Shown in pieces: positions 36,001 to 39,000 of a stretch of 47,852 nucleotides of DNA. Within the stretch, counting starts at the first letter, position 1. Each line of letters starts with the position of its first letter. Source of the stretch: Candidatus Babelota bacterium (GTDB taxonomy: Bacteria > Babelota > Babeliae > Babelales > Vermiphilaceae); contig JBMOLF010000021.1 of assembly GCA_049325595.1 (NCBI GenBank), positions 1-47,852 of the forward strand. Reading direction: 5' to 3'. Made by a program: the position numbers.

Positions 36001-39000
36001 ATTGCATCTTCAATCTTTTTCCCTGCTTGTTTTTTGTATTCATCTATTTCTCGATTCACTTTCCCTTCAGCCTGTTTTTGTAAATCTTCATAGATCTTTT
36101 TTGCTTTTGCTTTAAGTGGATCAAGGAGAGTTTCTTGGTTAATTATTTTACCGCTTTTTAACGATTGTAATGCGCGCTCAATTTGATTTGCTTGGGCTTC
36201 TTTTAGTCTAGCAATAACTGCTGCAGATTTAATGCCCGTTTGTTGAGCAATCTCTTTATAAATACGTGCTTGCAATTTTATTTTTTTAATTTTCAATACT
36301 AACCATTCACCAATATTTTCAAATGATTTTTTAAAGCCTTGAACTGGAACAATAAATTGCTGTAAATCTGCTTTTACTACTTTCAAGTCGTTAATAAGTT
36401 TTTGCAAGACATCTTGATGGGATGCAACTAATCGATTTTGATTAGATAGTTGATCAAATACTTTTTCTATTTCTTTGATTTTGAAATCGATTTTTTGAAT
36501 TTCTAAATCAATACCAGCACGCACTAATTCCGGTGAAATAGTAACTGATTTATTTTTTATTTGCAGCGCAAATTGCGCTAACGTATCAGCAGGAATATCT
36601 GATAAAGATGCTAGAGCGCTCAAATTCCCCAAAATGCTTGTTAATAAAATTAATTTTTCATGATTATTACTCTCAATTAATTTTTTATGCGATCGGTATA
36701 ATTTAATATGCTTTTTTAATCATATCAAAAGCATTACTTTCTATCTGAAATAGTAATCAATTTTACCCTTTATTTTCAATATTTTTTAATTTTTTAAAGA
36801 TGAAACTTTTCGTTTAAATTTGACAAATATTCTTTTTAGGGTTAAATCCGATGTATATACCTTAAAGGATCATATGAAACGATTATATACCCCATGGCGT
36901 AGCTCTTACGCTTCTGCCGTTCAAGGAACAAAAGATCCTAATGCAACAGCTGCTGATTGCGCATTTTGTTCACAGTTAAAAGAAAATAATGACGCAAAAA
37001 ATTATATTTTAAAAAGATTTAAACATAGTTATGTAGTGCTTAACAAATATCCATACAATGCTGGTCATTTACTAGTAATACCTTTTGAGCACAAACCACA
37101 ATTGCATACATTATCACTTGAAGCACGGCATGAGCTTATGGACGTACTAAATCAAGCTATACAAGCAGTGCAATCACATCTTGGTGCACAAGGAGTTAAT
37201 GTTGGATTAAATCTTGGTAGAGCTGCAGGAGCAGGAATCCCATCTCATCTTCATTTTCATGTTTTGCCACGCTGGGATGGTGACACCAATTTTTTGCCAA
37301 CTCTTGCAAATGTTAAAACTATTTCATTTGATTTAAATGAAATGTATCTTAAATTAAAACCATTTTTTGCAAATACACCGGGCGAATAACTCTCAATCGT
37401 AACAGCAAAACTCGATTAAAAGGTTAGATTATGCTTTCGATTAGAAAAAAAATTATTTTAACACTCGCTATTATTTCTTGCTCAAGTTATGCCTATAAAA
37501 ATGATCAATCAAATTTTTTAAAATTTTGGTGCACTAAAAACTTGCAAGAACTCGAGGAACAATCATTGTCAGCAATGGATGAAATAATGATTCATCTCAG
37601 TTACTGGCGTGCAGAAGAAAAAAAAATAACGACATCACGATTATCACCATCTTTAAGTTCTTGTTCGCTCTCGATAATCAAAAATAATGTCCAAGCACTT
37701 GAAAAAGCATTTAACCAAAAAGCATCTTTCTTAGGAACCATTTATCAATTAAAAAACCAGCTTAAAACAGGATCTGACGCCGCCATAGCAGAATCGATTA
37801 AAAAAACACATAAAGCATTAATAAGCGAAGTTGGTCGTACAGATACCTTAAATGATGCAACCATTACCCGCTTTGATTCAGCACAAAAAATTACTCAAGA
37901 TATATACAGCCTTGCTGTTAATGAACTGCCGACTAATTTTAAAAATTCAATTCAACCTTATAAACGACCATCATGGTATCAAGCAAATAAAAAATATCTT
38001 ATTGCAGCTGGTGCGCTTACCACTGCGCTTGCAGCAAGCTATTGGTTACACAAAGCTGCTATAGCAAAAACCTGTAATAAATACGTTGGCATAGTGGGAG
38101 ATTTTTTCAAAAATCATATTATCCATCCATTGCTGCTCATAAAACAAATCATAATTGATAAACGCAATGATATGATCATGTCACAAGAATCATACGATCA
38201 AACAAAAATAAAAACCGAAGAAAAATTAGATAAGCTTTTTCAAAGAGTAGACCCGCAATTAACCGAAGAAGAAAGAAAACATCGAATAATACAGATAACT
38301 GTACATAATAATATGAGTTATCTAGATGATATATGGCATGATCAATTTAGCAATTTTTTTAACCGCGCAATTTGGAATCTTTACGAAGGAAAACTAGCAC
38401 TATTAGAGTCTAGCTCTGCACAAATATTGGTACATAAATTACAAACATACAAAATTTTAATGCAAGCATCACGAGACTTACAATTGTTACTACCTGTTGC
38501 TGCGCTTACTCCAACTGCATTGCTTGCATTTGCTGGCTACAAATTAACAAACAAAAGTTTATCTGCTTTAATGAGTGAAAAAAGCCCTGATGCAACGATT
38601 AAATCGATAAAACAAAATATGATTGCGATTGAACGCATAATCAATTATCACAACAAAAATAATCAAACATTACAAAATGAGCATATTGGTCAATTGCTCT
38701 ATCATAGCAATCAAATAAAAAAGGCAATTAAAAAACATAAAAAAATCGACCCTTTCATATTCTTGCAAGATCTTGCAGAGCTTGAATCACTCGATTTAAC
38801 ATTAAGCCAAAAAATGGCGGTAATTGATCGTATGTATAGAACCTATGAAATTCTAGGGTATAAATTATAGATCAGTTAAAAGCATATCGAGCTGTAACCG
38901 CGCTTTAGAAAGCGAATGTGCTTGTTTTTCCATATCTTTCCATGGATCTGTTCGCTTTTTAAGTGCATCAAAAACATTATAAATCGTGTATCTTTGCGCG

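Follow-up and report, generated by a model that had tools for sequence, protein, structure and literature searches.

Nca2 of Saccharomyces cerevisiae (YPR155C) is the founder of the Pfam family NCA2 (PF08637). Following the original yeast genetics, reviews name it among the ATP synthase factors. However, yeast Nca2 is listed as a protein of the mitochondrial outer membrane, and it yields no protease-protected form upon in vitro import. Its plant ortholog is Arabidopsis DGS1 (DGD1 SUPPRESSOR1), which is described in a review as an outer-membrane protein that bridges TOM (TOM40/20) and MIC60 and affects lipid homeostasis. Judged by these characterized members, NCA2 proteins resemble scaffolds of the outer membrane and not factors of expression.

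Contact with host mitochondria has been imaged in two isolates of the Dependentiae. Cells of strain Noda2021 are surrounded by metamorphosed mitochondria; in Chromulinavorax, according to its description, the host mitochondrion wraps the replication body and vesicles are shed. The same account reports that Chromulinavorax has no lipid synthesis and infers that it uses host lipids. Both isolates, each enclosed by host mitochondria, encode an NCA2 protein: that of Noda2021 is the closest named homolog of the protein described here (53% identity), and that of Chromulinavorax (P0048) scores 39.3 bits with the NCA2 model. The link between this protein and host mitochondria that had been proposed in the genome-wide survey's note is therefore plausible, as an association that spans two isolates. 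Our literature search found no paper that names NCA2 together with Dependentiae.

Legionella LncP is an effector of the mitochondrial carrier family that is inserted into host mitochondria; it reaches the host through the Dot/Icm type IV system and is not known to carry a Sec leader. The present case is similar in that an intracellular bacterium encodes a homolog of a membrane protein from the mitochondria of eukaryotes. Unlike LncP, however, the bacterial NCA2 protein has a predicted leader, and no VirB4-type marker of a type IV system was found in its genome. The Sec-leader ankyrin-repeat proteins of Dependentiae likewise combine a eukaryotic type of protein with a signal sequence, in a genome that apparently offers type II secretion as its sole specialized export route. 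These ankyrin proteins are soluble and form large, variable families, whereas the NCA2 protein is single-copy, of membrane type, vertically inherited and fixed in its chromosomal position.

The window analyzed here is a stretch of 47,852 nucleotides from a Candidatus Babelota bacterium. The open reading frame and the Pfam figures given for it in the survey were reproduced: the NCA2 model matches at E 7.3e-15 and 55.4 bits, against a cut-off of 20.6, with residues 351-472 covering model positions 158-289 of 289 (in nucleotide terms, a core at 38481-38846 in the six-frame scan). The signal-peptide-like start and the hydrophobic helices of the 479-aa protein were also seen again, by sequence and hydropathy. 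The features of the locus are as follows.

36820..37389, + strand: upstream HIT-family gene (Pfam HIT, E 3e-15), context only
37420..37423, + strand: RBS-like AAGG, 7 nt 5' of the ATG, read directly off the sequence
37431..38870, + strand: Nca2/DGS1-family coding sequence, 479 aa plus stop, ATG start (ORF list, Pfam NCA2 at 55.4 bits, full-length homologs)
37431..37493, + strand: putative Sec-type leader, residues 1-21, with an MLSIRKK start (R5, K6, K7), a hydrophobic core at 8-16 and predicted cleavage between SSYA and YK, from sequence and hydropathy; cleavage and export are inferred
37494..37994, + strand: N-terminal helical domain, residues 22-188, a predicted long three-helix bundle with HLxYW, LG and KPxHFxRNW motifs (AF2 pLDDT mostly 80-97)
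37995..38051, + strand: hydrophobic helix 1, residues 189-207, weak (KD peak 1.12), with an equivalent helix in eukaryotic members
38052..38474, + strand: middle helical domain, residues 208-348, from the AF2 model; in relatives, this stretch is where the Pfam model's N-terminal portion aligns
38475..38540, + strand: hydrophobic helix 2, residues 349-370 (KD peak 1.71), with near-invariant P361
38541..38867, + strand: predicted C-terminal four-helix bundle, residues 371-479, with the motif QKxxxIxRMYRxYxFL, invariant G420 and near-invariant D447, Q460, K461, M468 and L475; core of the Pfam match
38865..39782, − strand: convergent LigD primase-polymerase gene (Pfam LigD_Prim-Pol, E 6e-92), context only

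The HIT stop and the NCA2 gene are separated by 41 nt, and this gene order was found only in the window and in a congener, so the linkage is limited to the genus. Downstream, the 3' end of the LigD gene and the NCA2 stop overlap by 6 nt. No promoter or terminator consensus beyond chance level was found around the gene. The six-frame scan identified one copy of the gene in the bacterium's own 1.29 Mb genome (95% complete). The GC content of the gene (0.33) does not differ from that of its surroundings.

The survey's note had cautioned that only the C-terminal 130 residues match the family. This limit is an artefact of the Pfam model: the congener's protein (63 bits) matches model positions 4-289, and a profile built from six bacterial homologs aligns Nca2 of Hondaea over profile positions 46-476. 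In the window's own protein, the six-frame scan showed a weak second NCA2 stretch (residues about 201-257, model 9-67, E 0.0016, 17.3 bits). Searched against 1.84 billion proteins, the six-homolog profile retrieved 189, among them eukaryotic proteins of Hondaea, Lagenidium, Tribonema and Lobulomyces named "Nuclear control of ATPase protein 2" as well as proteins of Willaertia and Protostelium; protein searches with two other alignments (A2 and A4) returned just 7 and 3 proteins. By these alignments, homology to eukaryotic Nca2 spans nearly the whole protein and extends into the part that precedes the Pfam domain. Conservation follows the same extent: in 137 sequences, eukaryotes included, ten positions spread across the whole protein are conserved at 90% or more, among them W59, G102 and P180 in the N-terminal domain and D447, Q460, K461, M468 and L475 near the C terminus, where G420 is invariant. 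The C-terminal motif (G, D, QK, RMYRxYxFL) recurs in the consensus of the eukaryotic alignment. In the ESM Atlas, a neighboring cluster (feature score 0.92 to the query) is named "Protein DGS1, mitochondrial" and carries PF08637 on 100% of its members. The bacterial protein thus belongs to the same NCA2 family as DGS1 by this cluster and as yeast Nca2 by the Pfam threshold. An NCBIfam search with the 479-aa protein gave no match. Among 25 longer or named members searched for fused domains, 21 had NCA2 alone above the cut-off, 1 had it below, and 3 had no match; a match to ApoLp-III (25.5 bits) fell under its threshold of 36.3.

In a comparison with fungal and protist members of the family, the bacterial protein shows the same all-helical build, with two hydrophobic helices spaced by about 160 residues and a C-terminal bundle that is conserved. 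The helix spacing is seen in both the bacterial and the eukaryotic clans; at KD of at least 1.5, pairs at this spacing occur in 11 of 25 eukaryotic rows, and the remaining rows have one helix or none. The peaks of 1.12 and 1.71 in the window's protein compare with about 1.9-2.7 for most helices of Fo subunit a, TLC and a DUF21 protein of the same genome. In a positive-inside analysis, which yielded no decisive topology, the charges flanking the helices keep the eukaryotic pattern and do not match a bacterial N-out two-pass topology. A PDB sequence search gave 0 matches, which leaves the Nca2/DGS1 family without a solved structure, and Foldseek found no PDB match at E≤1e-3. VIA-align in wide mode returned generic helical matches only (best Z of 9.8 for the C-terminal bundle and at most 9.6 for the N-terminal domain); likenesses to BAR, ESCRT-III and sensor four-helix-bundle folds all fall under the bar of Z about 13 that we apply to helical bundles and are leads only. 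A homodimer prediction scored 0.00, which weighs neither way. As modeled, the structure offers no clue to function.

Eukaryotic Nca2 proteins differ from the bacterial protein in their longer N-termini and in having no bacterial leader. A leader-like N-terminus was scored in 119 of the 137 rows of the bacterial clan and in 2 of the 25 eukaryotic ones, by a crude criterion under which 62% of this genome's ORFs of 100 aa or more are flagged as well. An N-terminus of this type is also found in 21 of the 23 ankyrin ORFs of this genome and in its PLA2_B and MCF-like ORFs. The sequence IIS-C at Cys17 resembles a lipobox; this lipoprotein reading was ruled out, as the cysteine is not conserved in the six closest homologs. 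Two secretin genes lie on another contig (C9) of the genome, and the two markers searched for other systems, VirB4 (PF03135) and FHIPEP (PF00771), had no match in this 95%-complete assembly. The authors of the Babela genome report type II secretion as its sole secretion system.

The NCA2 gene is more widespread in these bacteria than the survey had indicated, which put it in 30 Babelales genomes. Among 261 Dependentiae species genomes, 54 have it over the Pfam cut-off, 64 at E≤1e-3, and 99, with intact ORFs, by a Babelales clade profile at E≤1e-5. Outside the phylum, none of 14 control genomes had a match. These controls and the make-up of the 1.84-billion-protein search agree with the survey's view that the family is otherwise eukaryotic and mitochondrial, and bacterial members were seen here only in this parasite phylum; no such agreement holds for the ATP-synthase tuning that the survey attached to the family. 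The gene is near-universal in six families (f3, f5, f12, f14, f17 and f19) and absent from two large ones (0 of 41 genomes in f2 and 0 of 35 in f18), whose members are presumably intracellular parasites as well. It adjoins rplU in 11 of the 20 regions in which the NCA2 gene was located, across four families (with one intervening ORF in one region), and its neighbors, which include trkAH and a DedA/VTT protein, are housekeeping genes and not an effector island. Tandem paralogs occur in one genus. Between the window and the congener, the NCA2 proteins share 53% identity versus 64-97% for the enzymes encoded nearby, that is, NCA2 diverges faster.

In two trees, 25 eukaryotic sequences (six of them named) and 30 bacterial ones are split by a single branch with a support of 98 in both. 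One old transfer therefore suffices; its direction is not set by the trees, which have no outgroup. The gene, by its sequence and distribution, is old, inherited vertically along family lines and compositionally ameliorated, which speaks against the survey's "host-derived" if taken to mean a recent pick-up. Each tree gathers the eukaryotic sequences into a single compact clan that arises on a short stem among deep, highly divergent bacterial clades, and the midpoint root lands among bacteria. As the root is not fixed, transfer could also have run in reverse, with a Dependentiae-like intracellular parasite donating Nca2/DGS1 to early eukaryotes and the bacterial lineage being the older; we regard this as improbable.

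On this evidence, the protein is a full-length bacterial member of the Nca2/DGS1 family, apparently a helical two-pass scaffold of the mitochondrial outer membrane in eukaryotes. Our best reading of its role, possible though short of probable, is that of an exported mimic of this host scaffold. One ancient transfer would link the eukaryotic and Dependentiae versions, followed by vertical inheritance in about ten families, and the Sec-type leader would have been gained in the bacterial lineage. The protein would be exported by Sec and, since its hydrophobic helices seem too weak for a firm hold in the inner membrane, we propose that it leaves the cell by the sole host-directed route of these bacteria, type II secretion or outer-membrane vesicles. 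It would then insert into, or dock onto, the host mitochondrial outer membrane as an Nca2/DGS1 mimic, its conserved N- and C-terminal bundles engaging the same partners as the host protein does in the TOM-MICOS bridge, and mitochondria would be tethered and reshaped around an ATP-importing parasite without lipid synthesis. No Mic60 homolog was matched in the bacterium's own genome, so any such DGS1-type partner would be the host's. Several observations favor this mimic: divergence faster than that of the enzyme neighbors, the tandem paralogs of one genus, a leader-like N-terminus that is common in the bacterial clan and rare in the eukaryotic one, the weak helices and the two mitochondria-wrapped isolates. 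Against it, a leader followed by two hydrophobic helices would by default keep a protein in the inner membrane, and the known substrates of type II secretion are soluble. The crudeness of the leader criterion, the two-isolate basis of the wrapping link, the absence of the gene from f2 and f18 and its housekeeping-gene setting also count against a mimic.

Some of these points would fit a role in the parasite's own envelope, where the leader and the two helices would anchor the protein in the inner membrane—the default fate of such a combination—and its helical bundles would lie in the periplasm, organizing membrane contacts or the handling of host lipids between the two bacterial membranes. Long vertical inheritance beside trkAH, DedA/VTT and rplU suits such a role, as does the lack of a match to FHIPEP or VirB4, markers of the type III and type IV systems by which a membrane protein could be injected. 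An analogy may also be drawn with DGS1, which probably plays such a part between the two membranes of mitochondria, given its connection to lipid homeostasis and the lack of lipid synthesis in Chromulinavorax, an inferred host-lipid user. However, the helices are weakly hydrophobic for this genome, and their flanking charges, for what an analysis without a decisive topology can say, oppose an N-out two-pass arrangement. The known partner, Mic60, appears to be missing, about 60% of the order's genomes, whole families included, do without the gene, and NCA2 evolves faster than core genes. An envelope role is the main rival of the mimic, though we consider it rather unlikely.

The remaining alternatives fare worse. 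The survey's note had proposed that the protein tunes the host's ATP synthase, that is, that it enters host mitochondria and alters how the Fo subunits Atp6 and Atp8 are expressed or assembled. The family name, the yeast genetics and the reviews that follow it suggest such an effect, and the parasite does import ATP, by way of two tandem TLC translocases. But the characterized members that localize to the outer membrane, yeast Nca2 without a protected import form and DGS1 as a MICOS/TOM partner, leave the tuning unsupported; from the outer membrane, a protein has no direct access to mitochondrial mRNAs and would probably affect Atp6/8 only indirectly, and we find this reading quite improbable. 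The note's counter-reading, that the protein helps to assemble or regulate the F-type ATPase of the bacterium itself, is more doubtful still: the genome encodes Fo subunit a and the family name is again suggestive, yet 252 of the 261 genomes have Fo a as against 64-99 with NCA2, and at least 150 keep Fo while lacking NCA2, a distribution that argues against a required role. Moreover, none of 21 regions links NCA2 to atp genes, and the bacterium's own Fo a lies on a different contig (C1, versus C21 for NCA2). Finally, in a family that is eukaryotic elsewhere, and with the label Eukaryota/Rotifera on the nearest cluster of the ESM Atlas, one might suspect contamination of the assembly or a decaying relic. 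This suspicion is refuted by synteny and conservation: the congener has the same gene order in a genome assembled as a single contig of 1.22 Mb, so the gene is not eukaryotic contamination, and the intact ORFs of the 99 genomes have bacterial neighbors, the synteny recurring in closed single-contig genomes, with typical GC, an RBS-like site and strongly conserved key residues.

Dependentiae are a widespread phylum of obligate protist parasites whose manipulation of their hosts is almost uncharted. Images of two of the four isolates in culture show them enclosed by remodeled host mitochondria, and no factor has been proposed so far. The NCA2 gene is a concrete candidate: it apparently encodes a full-length copy of an outer-membrane scaffold, and about 40% of the species genomes in the phylum carry it, as do both wrapped isolates. 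A leader-bearing copy of a mitochondrial outer-membrane protein in an amoeba-dwelling bacterium may help explain how such parasites bring host mitochondria to wrap them. If the protein reaches host mitochondria, its mimicry of a structural TOM-MICOS subunit would represent a new bacterial hold on the organelle; if it serves the envelope instead, it would be a rare bacterial reuse of organelle membrane architecture. Either outcome would inform the poorly understood Nca2/DGS1 family.

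The gene examined here occurs once in a genome of 1.29 Mb (24 contigs, 95% complete), of which the window is contig C21; the gene's GC content of 0.33 is that of the remainder of the window.

37431..38870, + strand: NCA2 ORF, ATG start, 479 aa

The ORF matches the Pfam NCA2 model (PF08637) with E 7.3e-15 and 55.4 bits (cut-off 20.6) over residues 351-472, corresponding to model positions 158-289 of 289, which reproduces the figures of the genome-wide survey's note. The same frame holds a second, weak NCA2 stretch, which pairs about residues 201-257 with model positions 9-67, and NCBIfam gave no match for the ORF. 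The note had held that only the C-terminal 130 residues match; this is not the case, as relatives align over nearly the full length and the protein of a same-genus genome matches model positions 4-289. The C-terminal-only match is due to the Pfam model, which fits divergent bacterial sequences weakly. The NCA2 observation itself is thus strengthened to full-length homology.

A word-indexed search returned five relatives besides the protein itself (39-77% identity, 471-487 aa), including, at 53% identity, 'hypothetical protein Noda2021_10070 [Candidatus Dependentiae bacterium Noda2021]'. A profile built from these six sequences (A1), searched against 1.84 billion representative proteins, retrieved 189 proteins at E<=1e-3, of which 53 reached E<=1e-10; in many of them the alignment runs from about position 20-50 to 475. 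Cluster look-ups for 20 A1 matches named Hondaea fermentalgiana, Lagenidium giganteum, Tribonema minus, Willaertia magna, Protostelium nocturnum, Lobulomyces angularis and one MMETSP transcript, all eukaryotic; the Hondaea protein, 'Nuclear control of ATPase protein 2', covers profile positions 46-476. An alignment of 137 sequences close to full length shows G420 without exception, and W59, G102, P180, P361, D447, Q460, K461, M468 and L475 in at least 90%; conserved positions therefore extend through the whole protein, from its N-terminal domain onwards to the end.

The AlphaFold2 model computed from this 137-row alignment has high confidence (mean pLDDT 89.7, pTM 0.73) and is all-helical, with 16 helices; together with hydropathy it delimits these parts:

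residues 1-21: putative leader (Sec-type N-terminus)
residues 22-188: long helical bundle
residues 189-207: hydrophobic helix 1
residues 208-348: helical middle domain
residues 349-370: hydrophobic helix 2
residues 371-479: four-helix bundle

The spacing of about 160 residues between the hydrophobic helices recurs in eukaryotic members. Structure searches with the model found nothing beyond a generic resemblance to helical proteins (Foldseek best E 0.075; VIA-align best Z 9.8), and a sequence search found no solved structure for the family.

The neighbours are bacterial: a HIT gene upstream, and split LigD primase-polymerase and phosphoesterase genes downstream, convergent with NCA2. An AAGG lies 7 nt 5' of the ATG, and the HIT gene stops 41 nt earlier. 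Promoter-like sites are not above chance (10 found, 12.7 expected), and none of the four terminator-like sites (1.8 expected) lies in the gap between the HIT and NCA2 genes. The stretches 38865-40443 and 40498-41217 (both - strand) hold LigD as two separate genes, the primase-polymerase (38865..39782, E 6e-92) and the 3'-phosphoesterase (E 9e-42), followed by an ORF with a metallo-beta-lactamase-like HGHPDH motif. Together they make an end-joining module in a parasite whose genome measures 1.3 Mb; the ORFs scanned showed no ligase domain. Elsewhere in the window, four ORFs in a row (33625-36632) lack a significant Pfam match; three have leader-like N-termini, and the four share 22-57% identity between two congeners, against 64-97% for nearby enzymes.

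The gene was surveyed in 261 species genomes of the phylum, all of one order, 189 of them high-quality. The Pfam model finds it in 64 genomes at E<=1e-3 (54 over the cut-off; 55 of the high-quality set), and a profile from 29 bacterial sequences (A3) in 99 at E<=1e-5 (82 of the high-quality set).

NCA2 by family (profile A3; genomes with a match/genomes surveyed)
f1 38/79; f3 15/16; f5 14/14; f7 1/1; f10 1/1
f12 10/10; f14 5/5; f17 2/2; f19 10/12; f21 2/4

A3 had no match in f2 (0/41), f18 (0/35) or nine smaller families. Most genomes hold one copy; in every listed genome of g44, a genus of the window's family, two or three paralogs stand side by side (e.g., G251:C1:1089131-1092282 and G247:C2:37402-40701). 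Twenty regions of about 14 kb, taken from other genomes, were set beside the window; in one of them the first profile missed NCA2. Among the 20 regions with a detected NCA2 gene, 11 have a divergently oriented rplU next to it, immediately adjacent in 10. Upstream in this arrangement lie trkA, trkH, a VTT/DedA gene and a class II tRNA synthetase gene; mutS follows within two genes downstream in 8 regions, and then a PLA2_B lysophospholipase gene in 6. The arrangement spans f3, f12, f14 and f17, while the window's genus has another context, common gene for gene to the congener. No consistent functional partner emerged across the regions compared. The picture is of an old, vertically inherited and compositionally ameliorated gene, with losses or deep gains, and not of one lately acquired from a host.

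Synteny and conservation exclude eukaryotic contamination as the source of the gene. A separate matter is the nearest ESM Atlas cluster, which has 57 members and a representative of 479 aa; 82% of the members carry NCA2, and the cluster is labelled 100% Eukaryota, with Rotifera the most frequent label. It may be the protein's own cluster, which would mean that Dependentiae sequences are filed under rotifer assemblies, through contamination or transfer.

A first tree (FastTree, 162 sequences, leaving out those below 400 or above 900 aa, protein P0155 and identical duplicates) contains a 25-row clade (support 98) with every named eukaryote and none of the 31 ORFs from Dependentiae genomes; every group outside it contains such ORFs. 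This clade defines our eukaryotic set, in which only 6 of the 25 rows carry eukaryotic source names, although these are spread over its sub-clades. IQ-TREE (LG+C20+F+G4 by PMSF), run on the 25 rows and 30 genome-derived bacterial ORFs, again recovered a single split (SH-aLRT 98). Judged from these sequences, one transfer between eukaryotes and Dependentiae would be enough to explain it; the tree is unrooted, with long terminal branches (often above 1 change per site) and a short stem (0.26), and does not set the direction.

The eukaryotic relatives bear on function. Yeast Nca2 appears as an outer-membrane protein in Table 1 of PMC4889329, and the account of an in vitro import assay in PMC5881500 reports that no protease-protected form was seen. 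According to a review (PMC7865480), its plant ortholog DGS1 resides in the outer membrane, connects TOM40/20 with MIC60 and influences lipid homeostasis. On this basis the family resembles a scaffold of the outer membrane, and the effect of Nca2 on Atp6/Atp8 is probably indirect; tuning of the host's ATP synthase, the mechanism first suggested, is thus very unlikely. A preprint (10.1101/2022.09.13.506888) states that Nca2 is kept in most eukaryotic lineages. The ESM Atlas independently links 'Protein DGS1, mitochondrial' to PF08637 and to our query; in the library searched, no paper named both 'DGS1' and 'NCA2', or both 'Dependentiae' and 'NCA2'.

Two members of the phylum have been imaged enclosed by mitochondria. 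The Noda2021 announcement describes cells in Vermamoeba 'surrounded by metamorphosed mitochondria'; the Noda2021 protein, the closest named homolog of ours, has an NCA2 score of 63 bits and agrees letter for letter with an ORF in G246, a genome of the same genus. Chromulinavorax destructans is described as having its replication body wrapped by a host mitochondrion that stays intact, as shedding vesicles and as being without lipid synthesis. P0048, an f5-family ORF in locus L049 with the NCBI name 'hypothetical protein [Candidatus Chromulinivorax destructor]', scores 39.3 bits against NCA2. NCA2 is thus present in both imaged cases, which are too few for a correlation.

Two TLC-type ATP/ADP translocase genes in tandem (G000:C23:8328-11141, - strand, in the window's own genome) confirm the parasite's capacity to import ATP. 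A PLA2_B lysophospholipase of eukaryote type (E 5e-28 and 6e-28; no match in 14 control genomes) is encoded at L035:12068-13768 and at five further loci, so that 6 of 21 regions have it two or three genes beyond NCA2 on the downstream side; it also occurs in the own genome with a leader-like N-terminus (G000:C23:25799-26704) and is another lipid-related, eukaryote-like gene in Dependentiae parasites. A marginal Mito_carr match (G000:C10:252727-252864, - strand; 22.8 bits, cut-off 22.3) lies in a 284-aa ORF of carrier-like length with a leader-like start, which could be a second mitochondrial-type membrane protein of this genome; Babela is reported to encode carrier-family transporters. Ankyrin repeats occur in two window ORFs (10347-10586 and 12157-12336, both - strand), and across the genome 38 Ank_2 matches fall in about 23 ORFs.

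Where, then, would the bacterial protein act? A leader-like N-terminus (ten consecutive residues that average KD>=1.9 and begin no later than residue 25) is found in 119 of 137 bacterial-clan rows and 2 of 25 eukaryotic rows, a real contrast by a crude, non-specific test that also flags 62% of the 1233 ORFs of at least 100 aa in the own genome. The default fate of a protein with a leader and hydrophobic helices is the bacterium's own envelope; the housekeeping context of the gene fits a role there, as does the requirement that host lipids be carried through two membranes to serve the parasite. Leader-like starts also occur in 21 of the 23 ankyrin-repeat ORFs, the PLA2_B ORF and the carrier-like ORF, and therefore the leader cannot tell envelope from host-directed proteins. 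Against an envelope role, the hydrophobic helices are weak, with KD peaks of 1.12 and 1.71, whereas peaks of about 1.9-2.7 were seen for most helices in Fo subunit a, in both TLC translocases and in a DUF21 protein encoded by this genome. In both clans the positive charges flanking helix 1 face the N-domain and those flanking helix 2 the C-domain, a eukaryotic pattern that sits poorly with an N-out two-pass bacterial topology. From these features, indirect and mixed as they are, we lean towards a protein that would not be built to stay in the inner membrane. Moreover, Mic60 was not found in the own genome, the gene is absent from whole families, and it diverges faster than its enzyme neighbours (among 15 gene pairs compared between the congeners, 53% identity for NCA2, 64-97% for the enzymes and 22-57% for lineage-specific leader-bearing ORFs). 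On balance, an envelope role is a serious rival, somewhat less probable than the export reading given below.

Action at the bacterium's own Fo is unlikely, because subunit a is near-ubiquitous, being found in 252 of the 261 genomes and 188 of the 189 high-quality ones, and its occurrence therefore does not track that of NCA2. As for export, two secretins were found in the genome, and VirB4 and FHIPEP gave no match; the authors of the Babela genome describe type II secretion as its sole secretion system, and signal peptides are reported on 44% of Chromulinavorax CDS.

Thus, of the earlier interpretation, a mitochondrion-related, phylum-specific protein stands, and its mechanism and the recency of the gene do not. 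As the most probable of the readings, we tentatively suggest that the NCA2 protein may be an exported mimic of a host outer-membrane scaffold, which would help to recruit or reshape the host's mitochondria.
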